Source of the DNA: an uncultured Bacteroides sp.
GTDB lineage: Bacteria > Bacteroidota > Bacteroidia > Bacteroidales > Muribaculaceae
Reading direction: 5' to 3'
Length of the DNA: 53,762 nucleotides
NCBI GenBank assembly: GCA_964488335.1
Contig: CAZAUV010000001.1
Span: 1 to 53,762 of the forward strand
The notes under the pieces were generated by a model, which was not told the DNA's origin, did no database searches, and worked only from the letters and a program-made list of their open reading frames with translations. The translations under genes and the position numbers were made by a program. Positions 6,430 to 47,148 of the stretch are shown here, one piece after another. The first letter of the stretch is position 1. Each line of letters begins with the position of its first letter.

Positions 6430-8265
6430 ATGAAACGCCTCATAACCACCCTCTGGCTCTTCACCCTGATAGCCCTCGCGGCTGCCGCCCAGACCTCCTT
6501 CTCGGTCCAGGCCCCGCAGCGTGTCAGAGCCGGCGAGAAGTTTGCCGTGACCTTCCGCCTTGCCAACGGCGACAATCCCTCTTCTCTTAAAGTGCCTCAG
6601 ATAGAGGGGTGTGAGCTCCTCTTCGGGCCCGCCCAGAGCACCCGTCAGAGCTATCAGATCATCAACGGGCAGGCCTCTTCATCGTCGTCGATTGACTATA
6701 CCTACACCTATCGTGCCGGTAAGCCCGGCACTTATACCATCGGCGAGGCTTCAATCACTTCGGGCGGCAAGACCTACCGCTCCTCTCAGGCACGCTTCAC
6801 CGTGGTCGACAATCCCAAGATTGATCAGCAACAGGGCGGCTATGGCAGCAATTCGCAATCTCAACAGCCTCAGGTGTCGATTGACGATATCGACACCCAG
6901 TCGGCCGGCCGCGCCGTCAATTCCGGCGATGTGATCGTCAGAATTATCCTTGCCCGCAACAATGTCTATGAGCAGGAGCCTGTCGAGTGTACCATCAAGC
7001 TCTATACCAAATATAACATATCCTCATTCCGCCCGACAATCCAGCCATCATTTGACGGCTGCCTGATCGAAGAGCTCGATGTCCGCCCCGCTCTCAACGA
7101 GGTGGAGCGCTACAATGGCCAGGATTATTACACCGCTATCCTCAAGCGCTGTATCCTGTTTCCACAGAAGTCGGGTAAGATCACTATCAATTCAGGCAAC
7201 TATGATATGACCGTCATCCAGTATGAGCAGGTCAACATGGGCTTCGTGACGATGCGTAATCCTGTGGAGCGCGACATTAAGGTGACCAGCAATTCCGCCA
7301 CCCTCAACGTCAATCCGCTCCCGACGCCGGCTCCCGATGGCTTCACCGGAGCTGTCGGTCACTTCTCGATAGACTCCCGCCTGGTGGGCAACACCTTCCG
7401 GACCAACGACCCCGCCACCCTCATCTATACCATCACAGGCTCGGGCAACATAAAATATCTCAAGGAGCCGGCCCCCGACTTCCCCTCCGAATTTGAGCAA
7501 TATTCACCCAAGGCCGAGACAGATACACGGCTTAGCGGAGCCAATATCGCCGGCACCATGACTATCGAATATACCTTCGTGCCCACCACCACCGGCGACT
7601 TCACCATCGGGGCAGACAAGTTTGTCTACTTCGATCCATCTGACCGACAATACCACACCTTAACCACTCCCTCTTATCCCATCCATGTGGTCAAAGGCGC
7701 TTCGACCCCTGTATCTGACCGCGACCGCAAGGATATCGAGGCCAAGAATACTGACATACGCCATATCCGCCTCGGGGCATCGGGCCATATCAAGCAGCTT
7801 GAGCCCGTGGCCTATCAATGGTGGTATTGGGCCCTCTATATCCTGCTTATAATAGCCCTCATAGGCGCCACGGCAGCTTACGGCAAGCATGCCCGCGCCA
7901 TGGCCGACGTGGCCGGCCGACGCAACGCCCGCGCCGGGAAGGCCGCCCGCCGGCGCCTCGCCGCGGCCAAGGCCCTCCTTGACAAGGGTGATACCGCAAA
8001 ATTCCACGAAGAGCTCCTCCGTGCCCTCTGGGGCTACCTCGGCGACAAGCTCCGCCTCAATGCCTCGCAGCTCACCCGCCCCACGGTGACCTCAGTCCTC
8101 ACCGAGCGCTTCGGCGACAAGGGCGCCGATGTGGCCGCTCAGTTTGCCGGCGTGATCGATGCCTGCGAGCTCGCCCGCTATACGCCCGTCGAAGCTGATG
8201 CTCCCCGTCATCTCTACGACAGCGCCGCCGCTGCCATCAACAGTCTTGAGAGCCTCAAAGCCTAA
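6430..8265 (+). CDS. batD: BatD family protein
   Basis: Signal peptide, Ig-like repeats, FTGAVGHF motif, C-terminal TM; operon position. Confidence 0.9.
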   Translation: MKRLITTLWLFTLIALAAAAQTSFSVQAPQRVRAGEKFAVTFRLANGDNPSSLKVPQIEGCELLFGPAQSTRQSYQIINGQASSSSSIDYTYTYRAGKPGTYTIGEASITSGGKTYRSSQARFTVVDNPKIDQQQGGYGSNSQSQQPQVSIDDIDTQSAGRAVNSGDVIVRIILARNNVYEQEPVECTIKLYTKYNISSFRPTIQPSFDGCLIEELDVRPALNEVERYNGQDYYTAILKRCILFPQKSGKITINSGNYDMTVIQYEQVNMGFVTMRNPVERDIKVTSNSATLNVNPLPTPAPDGFTGAVGHFSIDSRLVGNTFRTNDPATLIYTITGSGNIKYLKEPAPDFPSEFEQYSPKAETDTRLSGANIAGTMTIEYTFVPTTTGDFTIGADKFVYFDPSDRQYHTLTTPSYPIHVVKGASTPVSDRDRKDIEAKNTDIRHIRLGASGHIKQLEPVAYQWWYWALYILLIIALIGATAAYGKHARAMADVAGRRNARAGKAARRRLAAAKALLDKGDTAKFHEELLRALWGYLGDKLRLNASQLTRPTVTSVLTERFGDKGADVAAQFAGVIDACELARYTPVEADAPRHLYDSAAAAINSLESLKA

Positions 8266-36028: not shown

Positions 36029-36943
36029 TTACTGTTTGTTGATGTCGCGCAGCGGCGCCTGAAGGATGCGCTCGCCCGGCTTGACGTCGTGGGTCACCCA
36101 CAGGTTGCCGCCGATGACGGCTCCGGCGCCTACCGTGATGCGCCCTAAGAGAGTGGCGTTGGAGTAGATCACTACGTCGTCGCCTATTATCGGGTGGCGT
36201 GCTATCCCCTTGATGGGGTCGCCATTATCATCTGTGGGGAAGGAGCGGGCTCCGAGGGTCACGCCCTGATAGATGCGCACCCGGCGGCCTATGATGGCCG
36301 TTGCACCGATCACCACGCCTGTGCCATGGTCGATCATCAGCCCCTCGCCTATCTCGGCTCCGGGGTGGATGTCGATGCCTGTCTCGCTATGGGCCATCTC
36401 TGAAATCATCCTGGGGACCACCGGCACATCGAGCTTATAGAGCTCATGGGCGATGCGGTGATTGGCAGTGGCTTTAAGTCCGGGATAGCAGAATACCACC
36501 TCATTGACGCTTTGCGCCGCCGGGTCGCCCCGGAAGGTGGCTTCGGCATCAGCCATAAGAAGTCGTCTCACCTCAGGGAGACGGGCAATAAAGGCCGTGG
36601 CTATCTCTTCGGAGCGGCTCCTAAGGAGCTTGAGGGGAGGGCAACCGCCGCCGTCGCCGAAACAGAAGCCGGCCGCCACCTGAGCGGCCAGGAGGCTATG
36701 GAGCTCCTCTAGGCGGAGGCCGACGTGGAAGGGCAGATTGCGTTCCGTAGTGGCGCTCTCTCCGAAAAATCCGGGGAAGACGAGGGCGCGGCATAGCCCC
36801 ACTATGCGCTTGATGTCGATAGCCGACGGCAGAGGCTCGCCACCGCCGGCGCTGAGCCATAAATTACCCATCCCGGCAGTGTCGGCCAGGATACGCCCTG
36901 TCTCCGTCAGGGCCTCATCGATGGTGGGTCGCTCCATAGTCAT
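36029..36943 (-). CDS. cysE: Serine O-acetyltransferase
   Basis: GDPAA, YPG, TGIDIHPGA, IDHGTGVVIG, YQGVTLG, RHP; TAATTTTG promoter at 37002-37009 (-). Confidence 0.92.
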   Translation of the reverse strand: MTMERPTIDEALTETGRILADTAGMGNLWLSAGGGEPLPSAIDIKRIVGLCRALVFPGFFGESATTERNLPFHVGLRLEELHSLLAAQVAAGFCFGDGGGCPPLKLLRSRSEEIATAFIARLPEVRRLLMADAEATFRGDPAAQSVNEVVFCYPGLKATANHRIAHELYKLDVPVVPRMISEMAHSETGIDIHPGAEIGEGLMIDHGTGVVIGATAIIGRRVRIYQGVTLGARSFPTDDNGDPIKGIARHPIIGDDVVIYSNATLLGRITVGAGAVIGGNLWVTHDVKPGERILQAPLRDINKQ

Positions 36944-37099
36944 TGTGTCAAAGATGATGGCAGCCGCTCCTTTCAGGGCATCAGACTACCTTTTCATCCT
37001 GCAAAATTAATGCTTACCTGCGGATTTTGCCACATCTTTGGCCCGGAAAATTAATTCTCCGCCTCATTACGCGCTAAAATAAATAGCGTCACCCTCCCC

Positions 37100-37311
37100 G
37101 ATTCCCTTGAAAAAGTGTCGCCATCGCCAATTATTCGTTGGAAAAAGTGTCACGGCAGCCGATTATTCCCTTGAAAAAGTGTCGCCATCGCCGATTATTC
37201 GTTGGAAAAAGTGTCACCATCGCCAATTATTCGTTGGAAAAAGTGTCACGGCAGCCGATTATTCCCTTGAAAAAGTGTCGGGGATACTTGATTATTCCCT
37301 TGAAAAAGTGT
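37100..37311. repeat. Tandem array, 7 units with 32-bp period
   Basis: GAAAAAGTGT at 37109, 37141, 37173, 37205, 37237, 37269, 37302; consensus RATTATTC(CCTT/GTTG)GAAAAAGTGT plus 10-11 variable nt. Confidence 0.95.
37272..37288 (+). repeat. 17-bp direct repeat, left copy (AAAGTGTCGGGGATACT)
   Basis: Identical to 38756-38772. Confidence 0.9.
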
Positions 37312-37318
37312 AATTTTG
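37288..37318 (+). promoter_or_regulatory. Sigma-A promoter of the ATPase gene, formed by the last repeat unit
   Basis: TTG (37288-90), 20 nt, TAATTTTG (37311-18); ATG at 37341. Confidence 0.7.
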
Positions 37319-37340
37319 CATAAACATTAAAAGCTCCGCT

Positions 37341-38726
37341 ATGCTTAAACGAAAGATAGAGACTTACTTAGCCACATGGAAACATTCCGACGCAAAGAAA
37401 CCGCTTGTCATAAAGGGGGTAAGGCAATGTGGGAAGACCTATATTGTCAGGAAGTTTGCTTCCGATAATTATGACCATACAGTGTATCTTAATTTTATTC
37501 TGGAGCCGGATAAGAAAACGGCTTTTTCCGGTAACCTTGATGTCGACACAATAATCTTAAATCTGTCTGCTCTAATTCCAGGGAGTCAATTTGTAAGTGG
37601 GAAAACTTGCATAATCCTTGATGAGATCCAGGAATGTCGAGAAGCGCGGACGGCCCTGAAGTCGTTTTTTCTTGATGGCAGATTTGATGTCATTGCCACC
37701 GGGTCGCTTTTAGGAGTGAAAGGTTATGGAAGCTCCAATGATAGCGGTGATAGCCTCAGAGCCGACTCAGTACCGGTAGGGTATGAGACAATAGTCAATA
37801 TGTATCCCTTAGACTTCGAGGAATTTTTGTGGGCCAATAATATCAACGAAGGTGTGATAACGACCTTGAGAAAGTGCCTTGACGATGAGGTTCCCGTTCC
37901 GGAGGGTATTCACAAGGTAATGATGGAATTACTCTATCGCTATGTCGTGGTAGGTGGGTTGCCCGAGGTGGTCAATTGCTTCCTCAAAACAAAAAATATA
38001 GAGCAAATCCATAACATTCAGCGCACTCTTCTCGATGAATATCAGGAAGATATGGTTAAATATGCCCCTGATGCCGATAAGCCTCATATCAGGGAGTGCT
38101 TTGAATCAATCCCTAAACAATTGGCCAAAGAAAACAAGAAGTTTCAGTTCTCGACAGTAAAAAAAGGAGGGCGCGCTTCAAAGTATCTCGGAAGTATACA
38201 ATGGCTTGAAGATGCCGGCATTATCAGTCGGTGTTACAATACCCTAACTACTGAATTACCCCTCAGCGGAAACGCAATTACTGACTGTTTTAAGGTGTAC
38301 ACCTCTGATATAGGGCTACTAATGGGAATGCTGGATTTCGGCGCTCAAGCTGATGTCCTCAATGGTAGCCTTCTTGGATATAAGGGGGCTATCTATGAAA
38401 ACCTGATGGCTGATTTCTTGACCAAGGCAGGTCAGAAATTATATTACTTTCACAAGGATAGCGGCCTGGAGCTTGATTTTCTGATGAGATTGATGGGAGA
38501 ATGTGTTGTCATAGAGGTCAAGTCGGTTACCGGCAAGGCCAAGAGTCTCTCCACCGTTATGAAAAATAAGGCTGTATATCATGTCAATCGTGCGATAAAA
38601 TTGGGAAGATACAATGTCGGACGGGAGGGAGAGCTGCTTACCATTCCCCTCTATATGGGTTTTTTGTTGGGAGATAAAATCTCTAAAACTATCATTCCTG
38701 ACATTGATTTATCCGCGCTTACTTAA
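37341..38726 (+). CDS. AAA_14 ATPase + DUF4143 with C-terminal PD-(D/E)xK-like nuclease motif
   Basis: Walker A GVRQCGKT, Walker B IILDEIQ, IATGS, MYPLDFEEFL, GGLPE, ELDFL...VIEVKS; AT-richer than flanks. Confidence 0.88.
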   Translation: MLKRKIETYLATWKHSDAKKPLVIKGVRQCGKTYIVRKFASDNYDHTVYLNFILEPDKKTAFSGNLDVDTIILNLSALIPGSQFVSGKTCIILDEIQECREARTALKSFFLDGRFDVIATGSLLGVKGYGSSNDSGDSLRADSVPVGYETIVNMYPLDFEEFLWANNINEGVITTLRKCLDDEVPVPEGIHKVMMELLYRYVVVGGLPEVVNCFLKTKNIEQIHNIQRTLLDEYQEDMVKYAPDADKPHIRECFESIPKQLAKENKKFQFSTVKKGGRASKYLGSIQWLEDAGIISRCYNTLTTELPLSGNAITDCFKVYTSDIGLLMGMLDFGAQADVLNGSLLGYKGAIYENLMADFLTKAGQKLYYFHKDSGLELDFLMRLMGECVVIEVKSVTGKAKSLSTVMKNKAVYHVNRAIKLGRYNVGREGELLTIPLYMGFLLGDKISKTIIPDIDLSALT

Positions 38727-38746: not shown

Positions 38747-38772
38747 CCCCGATCTAAAGTGTCGGGGATACT
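38747..38772. repeat. Hairpin containing right copy of the 17-bp direct repeat
   Basis: CCCCGAT-ctaaagt-GTCGGGG stem-loop; AAAGTGTCGGGGATACT at 38756-38772. Confidence 0.85.
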
Positions 38773-38802: not shown

Positions 38803-39171
38803 TCAGTTGAGGGCGCGACGGACGACGGGGATGGCTATGTAGAGGGTGGCCACGGCGGCCATGCCGGCGGCAATGATCATGCGCGAGGGGTCGAAGGTGT
38901 CGCCGGTCTGCAGGTCCATGACCTTACGTATCTCGCCGGCGACGATCACGGCGCAGAAGCATACCACCATGATGAAGGCCAGGAGCTCGGGGATGCTTAC
39001 CAGGCGGCGCTCGCGGCGCGCCGGGAGGCGATTGAGGACGCGGCGTGTAAACCATGTGTCGGGCTGTGATGCCGGCTCGGAGGCGCGGAGGATGGCGCTC
39101 AGGCGTCGGTCAAGGTCGGCAGAGCTGACACTCTTGGCTGATTTATCGGAGGATTGGCGGGTGGTGTTCAT
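38803..39171 (-). CDS. Putative anti-sigma-like membrane protein (DUF5056-like)
   Basis: PDTWFTRRVLNRLP followed by two TMs, directly downstream of ECF sigma. Confidence 0.7.
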   Translation of the reverse strand: MNTTRQSSDKSAKSVSSADLDRRLSAILRASEPASQPDTWFTRRVLNRLPARRERRLVSIPELLAFIMVVCFCAVIVAGEIRKVMDLQTGDTFDPSRMIIAAGMAAVATLYIAIPVVRRALN

Positions 39172-39178
39172 GGTGGTC

Positions 39179-39709
39179 TCAGAGCTGATTGTTGAGGAGA
39201 GCGGCCAGTCGGTGGCGGGCTCGGTTGAGATAAGATTTTACGGTGCCTTGGGGCATGGAGGTGACGGCCGATATGCGGGCTATGGAGAATTGCTCGAAAT
39301 AGAAGAGCCTTACGACGGCCCTCTGGGGCGCCGGGAGAGCATCTATGGCCGCCTGGATAGAGTCGTCGCTTACCCGGATCTCGCTGTCGATGCCGGGGTC
39401 GGCAATGTCAAGGTCGTCGATCGACTCCGATGGGGAGAGGCGGCGGAGGTGGGTCAGATATTCCCGGTAGGCGATGCGGAAGAGCCATGTCTTGAAGCGG
39501 GCCACGCCTTCGAGGGAGCGGATGGCCAGATAGGCTTTGAGGAAGGTCTCTTGCGCCAGGTCGTCGGCGAGCATGGCATCGCCTCGGGTGAGGCTTATTA
39601 AGAAGCGCTTCAGGGGCTCGGAATAGGTCTCGACCAATTGCCCGAATGCATAGCGGTCGTCGGCCGCCACACATCGGGCAATGAGGCTTAGTTCCTGAAG
39701 GCGTGTCAT
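39179..39709 (-). CDS. ECF RNA polymerase sigma-70 factor
   Basis: ADDLAQETFLKAY, FKTWLFRIA, region 4 GTVKSYLNRAR. Confidence 0.93.
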   Translation of the reverse strand: MTRLQELSLIARCVAADDRYAFGQLVETYSEPLKRFLISLTRGDAMLADDLAQETFLKAYLAIRSLEGVARFKTWLFRIAYREYLTHLRRLSPSESIDDLDIADPGIDSEIRVSDDSIQAAIDALPAPQRAVVRLFYFEQFSIARISAVTSMPQGTVKSYLNRARHRLAALLNNQL

Positions 39710-39751
39710 CGTCGTCGGGGGGGATTGCGGGGGATGGTCGGCGGCTGTCTG

Positions 39752-40582
39752 TCAGAGTTTACGACCGAAGAAATAGGTGAATATCTTGGCAGCGCCGAGC
39801 ACCGCGAGGATACCTCCGACAAAGAAGCCGAGCGCGGGTTTGTCCCCTACGGCAAAGGAGATAAATACGACAAGGCCGATGCCGACCAGGATGAATCCGT
39901 TACGTAGGTCGCGAAGGGGTGAGGAGGCGGCTTTCATTCCGGTCACCTCTTTGACAGCATCCTTGACAGCCCCGAGATTGATGCCGGAAGCGGGAGGGGG
40001 CGGCGGGCAGCTCTGTCTTTCGGTCTCAGTATCAGGCGCGGACGGACTTTCGGGGGAAATTATCTGGTTGACGGTTACGTCAGGAGCCATAGGCGAACCG
40101 GTGAAAAAGGCCTCCGGCAGGGTATAATCCTGGTCTATCGCCCTACGGATAAGCCGGTTGCGCCCGTGCTGACGGTTCACTACAATTACAAATATGCCGA
40201 TAATAATCACCAGAATGAAAATGCCTATGACCGAAGTCACCACAACACCCTCTATCAAATTCATTGAACTATTCGTCAAGCCACTCGGATATTTAGGCGA
40301 CTCGATGTCGATATATACTGTCCGGATGTTGTCATGAAGGAGGGTACTGTCTGACGGCGCCACGAGAGTGTCGCCGCTTGAAGTGACAATGATGGTCGAC
40401 CCGTTGTCAATACCGGGAGTGCGGACGGCGCGACGGACCGACTCAGCCACGCTCCGCTCAAACTTTCGCCGCTCCCAGCCATCGGGCTCGGCTTGGGCCA
40501 AATCGGAGAGGTGGCAACCTGTCAGCACTGTAGCCACAAGGAGGCACGCAAGGATGGTGATGATATGGAGCTCTTTTCGCAT
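39752..40582 (-). CDS. DUF6249-like membrane protein/lipoprotein upstream of ECF sigma
   Basis: Lipobox-like LTGC, central TM followed by RNRLIRRAI, C-terminal LRNGFILVGIGL TM pair. Confidence 0.7.
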   Translation of the reverse strand: MRKELHIITILACLLVATVLTGCHLSDLAQAEPDGWERRKFERSVAESVRRAVRTPGIDNGSTIIVTSSGDTLVAPSDSTLLHDNIRTVYIDIESPKYPSGLTNSSMNLIEGVVVTSVIGIFILVIIIGIFVIVVNRQHGRNRLIRRAIDQDYTLPEAFFTGSPMAPDVTVNQIISPESPSAPDTETERQSCPPPPPASGINLGAVKDAVKEVTGMKAASSPLRDLRNGFILVGIGLVVFISFAVGDKPALGFFVGGILAVLGAAKIFTYFFGRKL

Positions 40583-45772: not shown

Positions 45773-47083
45773 TTATACCATATCATCGAGCGACAAAGCC
45801 GTGAAACCGATGCTCCAGCCCTGACGCTTCTCTTTGATTACGGTAGCCTTCTGCTCAAGTTTTTGAAGGTCGATGCGTCGCTTATTGCGCTTCACCTCTC
45901 CAATGATTATCTCGCGGTCGGCTTCATTGACGGCAATAAGGTCTATCTCGTTTCTGCCATTCTTTTCCCAATAGTTGGTGACAATATTATAAAGGCCGGT
46001 TTCGCGATAAAGCTGACGAAAATACCGCTCTAAAATGGCTCCGGAAAATGTGTCATAATCAGCAGCAATCTTTTCTCTGACATAGTCAAGATTTCCTATC
46101 TCTACTGCACTGCGATATTTATAAATAAATCTAAACCAGAATGTTAATAAATTATCTTTTATGCCATATTTCACGTTATGGCTGTTGGGAGTTGCCAAAT
46201 AGGGCCTATAGCGGTAGATCAGGTCATAGACGGTCTCGAGCCTGTCGAGAAATCCACCGGCTTCGATGCCTGTATATGACTTTATCTCTCCTCGCTCGTT
46301 GAAGCCTGATGCTACGGCAGATAAGATAGAGAAATAGTTTCCATAATCTTTGCCGAACTCATCAGACAGAAGCTCGCGACCTTCTTCAATAAAGAATGAA
46401 CCATAGGCGATAACTGTGTCGAAGATAGCTTGTTTTGTAAACGCCCCGGCTTCGACAAGGAGCTCGACATATTTGGCTACTCCCCCGGTGACCATAAAAA
46501 ATGACAAAAGATCATCCGGGGTAAAATTTGGATTGTTGTCGGTCATTATCTCTCTCAGGGTCATGAGGGGAAAAGCGCGGAGGCGCATCCTTGACGTAGC
46601 CCGACCATAAAGGGGCTCTTTACGGTCATCAAATATCCTGGTCATCATAGAATAGATAGAGCCGCAGACAATGAGGTTGATCTTTGCCTCCGTCTTCATA
46701 TCATCCCAGATATTTTGCATCTCGCTGAAAAAGGCCTCGTTGACATACTTGAAATTCTGAAATTCGTCGAATATCAGAGTCACGTGACGACGGCGCGACA
46801 TATTCATAATGGCAGCAAACAGACGCGACATACTGCTGAAATCGCCCAGGTCTTCGCCCATGCAATCGCGTACAGTCTCAGCCAGCTCCTTACATAAGAG
46901 CGCCTCACTTTTTCGGGCCACAAAGAAATATATCAAATCATTGCCGGGATAGGCGTGTTTTATGAGCGTGGTCTTACCTATGCGTCGGCGTCCGGTAATG
47001 ACCGTCAGTTGAGAATATTGCTTTGAGGTCTCAGCTATCTTTCGCAAAGTCTGCGTTTCTATCTCTCTATCGTAGAATTTCAT
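45773..47083 (-). CDS. Archaeal-type ATPase (ATPase_2) + wHTH + DUF234 PD-(D/E)xK-like domain
   Basis: FYDRE, GRRRIGKT, LIFDEFQ, VCGS, PLYGR, TGGV, FWFRF, EIDLIAV...IGEVK; AT-richer than flanks. Confidence 0.88.
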   Translation of the reverse strand: MKFYDREIETQTLRKIAETSKQYSQLTVITGRRRIGKTTLIKHAYPGNDLIYFFVARKSEALLCKELAETVRDCMGEDLGDFSSMSRLFAAIMNMSRRRHVTLIFDEFQNFKYVNEAFFSEMQNIWDDMKTEAKINLIVCGSIYSMMTRIFDDRKEPLYGRATSRMRLRAFPLMTLREIMTDNNPNFTPDDLLSFFMVTGGVAKYVELLVEAGAFTKQAIFDTVIAYGSFFIEEGRELLSDEFGKDYGNYFSILSAVASGFNERGEIKSYTGIEAGGFLDRLETVYDLIYRYRPYLATPNSHNVKYGIKDNLLTFWFRFIYKYRSAVEIGNLDYVREKIAADYDTFSGAILERYFRQLYRETGLYNIVTNYWEKNGRNEIDLIAVNEADREIIIGEVKRNKRRIDLQKLEQKATVIKEKRQGWSIGFTALSLDDMV

Positions 47084-47117
47084 AATTTTGTAATTACCAT
47101 TACTGTAATGGCCGTTG

Positions 47118-47148
47118 CAAAATTATTAAATATTCTTGGATGACCAAA
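47118..47148 (-). promoter_or_regulatory. Sigma-A promoter of DUF234 ATPase
   Basis: TTTG-N19-TAATTTTG on - strand; palindrome CCATTAC-T-GTAATGG at 47097-47111 just downstream. Confidence 0.65.

Follow-up and report, generated by a model that had tools for sequence, protein, structure and literature searches.

The window, by which we mean the whole stretch of 53,762 nucleotides analysed here, carries a predicted ATPase-nuclease gene that is preceded by an array of seven repeat units and lies divergent to a cysE gene. The features of this region are:

36029..36943, minus strand: cysE, a host serine acetyltransferase-like gene (Hexapep match), the divergent neighbour, outside the unit
37096..37102, plus strand: left arm CCCCGAT, the same sequence as the 5' arm of the downstream hairpin
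37100..37311, plus strand: array of seven 19-bp cores with a period of 32/33, predicted binding sites of the adjacent protein
37272..37288, plus strand: upstream copy of a 17-bp direct repeat (end of core 6 and last spacer), from the sequence
37288..37290, plus strand: predicted -33 element TTG in the last spacer, its position conserved in close loci
37311..37318, plus strand: predicted -7 element TAATTTTG (TAnnTTTG), which takes in the last base of core 7, from conservation and consensus
37341..38726, plus strand: PDC-S01/COG1373 gene, 461 aa, from Pfam, PADLOC, AF2 and conservation
38747..38772, plus strand: downstream hairpin with the second 17-bp copy (38756-38772), from sequence and fold

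The sequence GAAAAAGTGT occurs seven times in the window, with starts at 37109, 37141, 37173, 37205, 37237, 37269, and 37302; the distance from copy to copy is 32 bp five times and then 33 bp. The 19-bp cores begin at 37100, 37132, 37164, 37196, 37228, 37260, and 37293, and the consensus of the core family is TATTCGcTtGAAAAAGTGT. In a TRF run on the window, period 32 and a higher-order period of 64 bp were the two best-scoring of 40 rows. An earlier note on this DNA had described seven evenly spaced units, and the exact copies and the TRF period of 32 agree with it. The six variable segments that it listed were also recovered, with units 2 and 5 identical, while the unit start that it gave (RATTATTC followed by CCTT or GTTG) holds for six of the seven units, as unit 1 begins CCCGATTC. 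Its statement that all cores face the same side of the helix is only approximately right, because unit 1 lies about 137 degrees off unit 7 at 10.5 bp per turn. Two windows vary in each unit, one of 4 nt with two states and one of 10-11 nt. The six spacers represent only three types, which are copies of one another, and units 2-3 are identical to units 5-6 in an exact internal repeat of 56 bp; this repeat and the 64-bp higher-order period indicate that the array grew by internal duplication. The copy number of seven, which rests on a fragmented assembly, lies in the upper tail of the range of 2-9 units seen across arrays. A 21-nt array pattern searched with up to three mismatches gave seven matches in the 2.34-Mb genome (82% complete), all of them inside the array.

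The left arm has a partner, GTCGGGG, at 37277-37283, and the two arms enclose units 1-6. The earlier note overlooked the 17-bp exact repeat, in which 37272-37288 recurs at 38756-38772, past the stop codon of the gene; with up to two mismatches, it occurs just twice genome-wide. The second copy lies in the downstream hairpin, whose arms are 38747-38753 and 38761-38767. This hairpin contains a partial array site and may be used as a terminator between convergent genes.

The TTG at 37288-37290 and TAATTTTG at 37311-37318 are 20 nt apart and fit the -33/-7 promoter consensus of Bacteroidota as given in the accessible part of PMC7366714. The last core lies in the gap between these two elements of the AAA_14/DUF4143 gene, just as had been proposed. 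This arrangement recurs in close homologues: of 61 close loci, 50 have TTG within the closing 7 nt of the last spacer (for spacers earlier in the array, the figure is 12 of 79), and in 60 the last core is immediately followed by a -7-like box. The putative operator sites thus overlap the gene's own promoter at a conserved position. In Bacillota-type loci (L096-L102, L109, and L110), units were seen by eye on or just downstream of sigma-70-like -10 boxes, which suggests that the array follows the promoter across promoter types.

The product of 37341-38726 matches AAA_14 and DUF4143 in Pfam, as the earlier reading had it, and is a full-length match to PADLOC PDC-S01 (E 1e-151). It is composed of an Orc1/Cdc6-STAND-type AAA+ domain, a predicted winged helix, and a PD-(D/E)xK nuclease, with Walker A at G31-K32, Walker B at D94-E95, and nuclease residues E353, D379, E392, and K394. 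Among 181 aligned sequences, G31, K32, D94, E95, E353, and E392 are invariant (181/181), K394 is present in 180, and D379 in 173, with glutamate in the other 8. An AF2 model made from 85 aligned sequences (pLDDT 87.8) comprises an AAA+ domain, three helices with a two-strand wing (244-321), and a C-terminal alpha/beta domain of nuclease type. Residues 244-321 or so are predicted to form the winged helix, with a putative recognition helix at 279-291 and R278 at its start; as read in the model, the protein would have the DNA-binding domain expected of an operator-binding protein. The best fold matches are the archaeal ATPases 2qen (Z 15.9, rmsd 3.9, 258 residues aligned) and 2fna (Z 14.9, rmsd 4.2, 261 aligned), and further matches include STAND proteins such as Avs3 and Avs5 and the origin-binding Cdc6/Orc1 protein 2qby (Foldseek E 9e-6). 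A sequence search for a solved structure of a close relative found none.

The gene is patchy and foreign-looking. Its G+C content is 43%, compared with 62% in the flanking genes, and a homologue of more than 70% identity was present in only 2 of 69 congeneric genomes, the window's genome included. Two PDC-S01 paralogues lie elsewhere in the window's genome (G000), at C110:3923-5197 on the minus strand (L002) and C11:14187-15509 on the plus strand (L003); each has two upstream units spaced by 32-33 bp with a motif of its own, and the C110 units are palindromic. A homologue of 33% identity is found on related plasmids of 36-98 kb (H6-H15) in several Bacteroides, Phocaeicola, and Parabacteroides species. 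The window also contains a second solo ATPase-nuclease gene at 45773-47083 on the minus strand (ATPase_2 and DUF234, PADLOC PDC-S27), with a perfect 15-bp palindrome (47097-47111) between a -7-like box (47118-47125) and the start codon. This palindrome is possibly that gene's own operator.

In the window, the PDC-S01 gene is surrounded by housekeeping genes. The array starts about 90 bp from the -7-like box of cysE (37002-37009, minus strand), and a functional tie to cysE was considered and rejected, since cysE is present in none of 57 close homologue loci. The anti-sigma gene on the other side is likewise present in none of the 57. The nearest neighbours of these 57 homologues and the window's gene fall into 41 families on each side. 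Upstream of cysE, the five closest congeners carry differing genes. The block at 38803-40582 on the minus strand, which consists of a membrane protein, an ECF sigma factor, and an anti-sigma-like gene, is conserved in congeners with differing downstream neighbours. A PepSY-like gene precedes cysE in G016, and in G036 and G048 the anti-sigma gene is followed by one that looks similar on visual inspection; given this arrangement, the cassette probably stands in the former place of the PepSY-like gene. No empty site was found for the window in G016, G036, G048, and G014, where cysE and the ECF/anti-sigma block lie on separate contigs, and in the closest genomes the corresponding junction is rearranged.

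Upstream arrays proved to be a family trait. The close set consisted of 66 loci, the window and 65 others, from which five were removed, one because of an N gap and four because their flanks were short. All 61 loci scored, the window and 60 homologues at 72-81% identity, had 2-7 cores, so the co-occurrence that had been put forward as a check was borne out. Most have 2-4 units, with three in 35 loci and seven in two. The core spacing is 32 bp (61 intervals) or 33 bp (78) in 139 of 140 intervals, the remaining one being 65 bp, and the last core ends 28-31 nt before the ATG in 54 of the 61 loci. L070, a close homologue dropped for its short flank, showed no core in 144 nt. Since the core profile was built from the very loci that were scored with it, a motif-free self-match test was run on the 200 nt upstream of each gene. 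Among the close loci, 52 of 55 had their best lag at 31-34, as did 36 of 39 distant ones (26-45% identity); in the downstream control, the same lags came out best in 5 of 50 close and 6 of 38 distant loci, and five of these six distant loci have a downstream copy of their own array. In a held-out set, 96 of 109 new loci gave full proteins and 31 of 33 clusters had usable flanks; a lag of 32-34 was found upstream in 26 of 31 clusters versus downstream in 1 of 30. Distant clades and both paralogues of the window's genome have different motifs and share the period. The layout had been presented as unlike any described and as a candidate new system; it is instead a general trait of PDC-S01/COG1373 genes. 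In L099, L101, L103, L104, and L105, a copy of 70-110 bp of the gene's own upstream array region lies right after the stop codon, with the -7 box altered.

The proposal that the array is a phased operator for the adjacent ATPase gains from this co-occurrence, from the clade-specific motif, and from the fixed promoter position, and the sites themselves are predicted from sequence comparison. A genome-wide regulon was considered and rejected, as the motif occurs only in the array in the window's genome and is nearly promoter-confined elsewhere. In 49 genomes with the gene, of which six gave zero matches to the strict pattern, the two-core pattern is almost confined to the gene's own promoter, which fits an operator rather than a regulon. 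The extra sites in these 49 genomes amounted to two second copies of the gene, a single inverted partial array, a relic, and a site of the paralogue type. An order-wide pattern search matched 2 of 401 genomes, the window's genome included.

We also asked whether the putative recognition helix tracks the motif. In the first data set, on which the idea was formed before it was checked on new loci, R278 went with a conserved TGT (25/31 versus 1/14 loci). The held-out clusters gave 11/18 versus 1/10 (p 0.016, kinship ignored), and those below 60% identity to the first set gave 6/12 versus 1/7 (p 0.17). On a tree of 64 rows, after nine rows with a short flank or a weak or misplaced array were dropped, the raw counts were 30/43 versus 1/21, and the association was not upheld after kinship correction (10 independent pairs, median p 0.5). 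In 975 tests, an ATPase-core position outranked column 278, and the helix residues of L003 and L151 differ although both loci have the same motif. When proteins were collected from the motif side, all 37 full-length proteins beside the motif had R278, eight of them at about 30% identity. A simple code that pairs R278 with TGT is no more than suggestive.

The motif-first search added gene-less arrays, and with them a possible junction role for the repeats. In metagenomes, the two-core pattern was found at 69 loci, with the gene directly downstream in 32, absent in 35, and no room for it in two. It was found in 32 of 301 genomes of one Bacteroidales family; the reversed-pattern control matched none of the 301. 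A protein search of 29 pattern genomes gave a homologue of at least 73% identity in seven, of 56-62% in two, and only of 42% or less in 12. The other 8 of the 29 had no PDC-S01 match at 1e-40, and the presence of an array alone therefore does not imply current use. After pooling and de-duplication, there were 92 distinct arrays: 44 before a PDC-S01 5' end, 46 not, and two special cases. A -7 box follows the array in 36 of the 44 gene-bearing cases compared with 1 of the 46 gene-less ones. The gene-less arrays have 25 right-flank classes, three of them doubtful, and combine left and right flanks in mixed ways; many lie amid RM, CBASS, Thoeris-like, HipA, and RhuM genes. Compared with a gene-bearing sister locus, 12 of 18 cases, not independent of one another, lose homology 0-2 nt past a core and the rest within 30 nt; local alignments tend to stop at cores, which makes these breakpoints weak evidence on precision. 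None of 102 genes checked behind arrays was internally deleted: 90 were intact, seven ran off the contig end, and five had early stops (four frameshifts and one mis-called start).

Some individual cases are of note. One gene-less array (L294:1801-1851, minus strand) has a -7-like box with a thioesterase gene 44 nt further on, as if the promoter had been captured. At L394:2889-3054 (G515), an array is joined to the last 27 codons of a close homologue, and L377 has eight units and 35 nt where L081 has the entire gene. Two gene-less array pairs enclose other genes: MatE, aldo-keto reductase, short-chain dehydrogenase, FMN reductase, and HxlR at L399:6739-12013 (G635), and MatE with a PDC-M62-like pair at L398:5273-14787 (G714). 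In G497, inverted copies of the array region (L395:5218-5301 and 7755-7871) flank the gene 2.5 kb apart.

A filled and an empty allele were found in related genomes. G744 and G620 carry a 7.8-kb module consisting of array 1, the ATPase gene, four genes, and array 2, and at the same place G646 has a single array, with the joint inside an array core. G646 and G744 align over 405 bp (85%) that finish where array 1 ends, and again over 2401 bp (93%) starting with the first core of array 2. G744 and G620 versus G646 thus provide an empty allele that retains one repeat copy; G780 is a looser second case. The four genes include MksE and DUF3584 matches and gave no PADLOC match at 1e-10; by inference, this cargo is Mks/Wadjet-like. 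G681 shows an array-gene-array order with a common leader, and elsewhere the gene or other cargo is enclosed by direct array pairs at distances of 1.7, 5.2, 7.7, and 9.5 kb. Flanking direct repeats scoring at least 36 were detected at 23 of 60 gene loci (about 11 independent sites). Among own-locus controls the figure was 1 of 53, and among cross pairs 6 of 400, each of the six between sister loci. These repeats at the gene loci are 19-220 bp long and mostly host sequence rather than arrays; of 54 close loci, a single one had a full core in the roughly 160 nt that follow the gene. In the window, the flanking repeat has a score of 34, below the threshold, and consists of the 17-bp exact match and a separate 7-bp arm.

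We propose that the adjacent protein binds the repeats and would thereby repress its own promoter, and that the same repeats mark recombination joints; on comparative sequence evidence, we regard this combined reading as probable. Self-repression is suggested by the position of the last site between the -33 and -7 boxes, and the role as recombination joints by the gene-less arrays, the filled/empty pair, and the 17-bp array piece behind the window's gene. The winged helix would read the asymmetric 19-bp core, and ATP-dependent contacts between AAA+ domains could make binding cooperative over sites about three turns apart. A potentially harmful nuclease would in this way be kept at a low, self-set level, also after transfer to a new host. 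Extra units, as in the window, may arise by unequal recombination and would tighten or titrate repression. Arrays in direct orientation would recombine, most simply by host recombination, so that the gene and its cargo are gained or lost and a promoter-less array is left behind.

The evidence on junctions can also be read the other way round, with the array first of all a mobility site: the protein would assemble there and its nuclease cut at or near it, driving integration, excision, and shuffling, with autorepression secondary. The filled/empty pair joined within an array core (G646), the direct array pairs around the gene or other cargo, the mixed flank combinations of the gene-less arrays, at least 22 distinct right flanks that break in or just past the array, and the absence of arrays before internally deleted genes would all suit this reading, as would the excess of flanking direct repeats (23/60 loci versus 1/53 controls), the neighbours in 41 families per side, and the retention of nuclease residues E353, E392, and K394 in 180-181 of 181 sequences. 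However, the breakpoints do not fall at one base, several lying in the spacer or core that follows, the flanking repeats are for the most part host sequence of variable length (19-220 bp), and a second array is absent at most genes. Host recombination between repeats is sufficient for the filled/empty pair, and the breakpoint bias is also explicable by selection against a de-repressed promoter or by fork stalling at a bound array. We consider a primary mobility site unlikely. Its furthest form, in which PDC-S01 is a one-gene mobilisation engine that represses itself at its own three-turn-phased array, triggers recombination by nuclease action at the bound array, and uses genomic arrays as attachment points for swapping defence cassettes, integron-like and without a recombinase, appears unlikely. 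The array might instead be a parking or sensing platform on which an anti-phage effector is held inactive until infection, by degrading or displacing host DNA, sets it free or activates it. Membership in the PADLOC candidate PDC-S01, the STAND-like fold with Avs3 and Avs5 among its matches, and the gene-less arrays amid RM, CBASS, Thoeris-like, and HipA genes point in this direction. This reading strikes us as quite unlikely, as the window's gene sits amid housekeeping genes and, according to the accessible part of PMC12881386, a PDC-S01 representative challenged in E. coli with T4, T5, and T7 did not figure among the four candidates that gave protection; the construct described there was the coding sequence alone, in pQE82L.

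Two further readings concern the array by itself. The earlier note had also suggested that it is a template for short repeat-derived RNAs, that is, guide or scaffold RNAs of about 32 nt for the nuclease in a CRISPR- or TIGR-like manner. A constant core, variable windows, and a fixed unit length are what one would look for in such a template, but the predicted start site is located downstream of the array, neither strand of the array folds better than shuffled sequence (z -1.07 and +1.51), and no Rfam family matches it, the sole match in the region (E 0.59) being inside the gene. Its six spacers are of three types and arose by duplication; among homologues, near-identity was seen in 12 of 121 pairs of spacers from the same array, the earlier spacers have almost no conserved letters, and most arrays have just 2-4 units. 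Neither Cas1 nor a Nop domain was found in the 82%-complete genome. These results do not support the suggestion, and we regard it as highly improbable. Equally hard to credit is a neutral VNTR or an assembly artefact, for which the 56-bp exact repeat and the 64-bp higher-order period, as marks of recent duplication, and the fragmented assembly could be cited. Cores are conserved and spacers variable in many families, with period and promoter position fixed, arrays of 6-9 units exist at other loci, and the reversed pattern matched 0 genomes compared with 32 of 301 for the true one. Neutrality is thus largely refuted for the array as such, and it is possible for the units beyond the usual 3-4.

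Self-repression at the array, combined with recombination between arrays, is directly open to experiment: a 19-bp site is predicted per clade, which makes binding, ATP dependence, nuclease activation, and autoregulation testable. Because the negative E. coli test used the coding sequence alone, as far as PMC12881386 could be consulted, assays of PDC-S01 should carry the native array. If the pairing of motif and helix holds, the family would be a rich natural source of orthogonal repressor-operator pairs functioning at Bacteroidota promoters. Together with the filled/empty pair, the gene-less arrays indicate a way in which defence islands of gut Bacteroidales may be reshuffled. The window's locus is an example of the long-array end of this family, not a unique system.

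PDC-S01 has been described as an ATPase fused to a PD-(D/E)xK domain, with the majority of PDCs still to be validated, in the portion of PMC12988326 available to us; COG1373, that is, AAA_14 (PF13173) with DUF4143 (PF13635), is listed with unknown function in the corresponding portion of PMC3424549. Across prokaryotes, PDC-S01 ranks fourth in frequency among defence entries, and in rumen genomes no other single locus is more frequent, according to the accessible text of PMC12988326 and PMC13356809. Within their accessible text, PMC12988326 and PMC3424549 mention no upstream array, binding site, autoregulation, or gene-less arrays. A search of openly accessible article texts on DUF4143, COG1373, and PDC-S01 found no published description of PDC-S01 arrays.

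In the window, as at TIGR-Tas and CRISPR loci, a nuclease gene adjoins a tandem series of short segments, some constant and some variable. The TIGR-Tas units, to go by the part of PMC12045711 at hand, are 36 nt long with two spacers of 8-9 nt and an adjacent Nop-domain protein, whereas the window's units are 32-33 nt with variable windows of 4 and 10-11 nt, and the adjacent gene encodes AAA_14 and DUF4143; Nop (PF01798) was not found in the 82%-complete genome. In contrast to CRISPR, the spacers are 10-11 nt long, of three types, and duplicated, there is no Rfam CRISPR repeat, and Cas1, the cas gene sought, was not found in the 82%-complete genome.

Insertion of restriction-modification genes with long target duplication, with a cut-off of 30 bp, was reported by Furuta et al. 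(PMC2853133, accessible part). As in those insertions, a nuclease gene with no integrase or transposase is accompanied, in some relatives, by long, variable direct repeats and by filled and empty alleles. The 17-bp exact repeat of the window is shorter than their cut-off. In the account of these insertions as far as it was accessible, the differences are that the window has a single gene with no methyltransferase and that in some of the cases the flanking repeat is the protein's own predicted binding array.

Archaeal Orc1/Cdc6 proteins with their ORB sites and plasmid iterons with Rep autorepression form a further point of comparison. Unlike in these systems, the window's protein has a C-terminal nuclease, the period of the array equals three turns, and a single gene stands between chromosomal housekeeping genes at many unrelated places, with nothing that suggests a replication origin; these unrelated sites argue against such a role. 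Like Orc1/Cdc6, the protein combines AAA+ with a winged-helix fold that, as modelled, is related to Cdc6/Orc1. As with iterons and ORB sites, asymmetric phased direct repeats lie next to an initiator-like gene, that of their predicted binder, and overlap its promoter.
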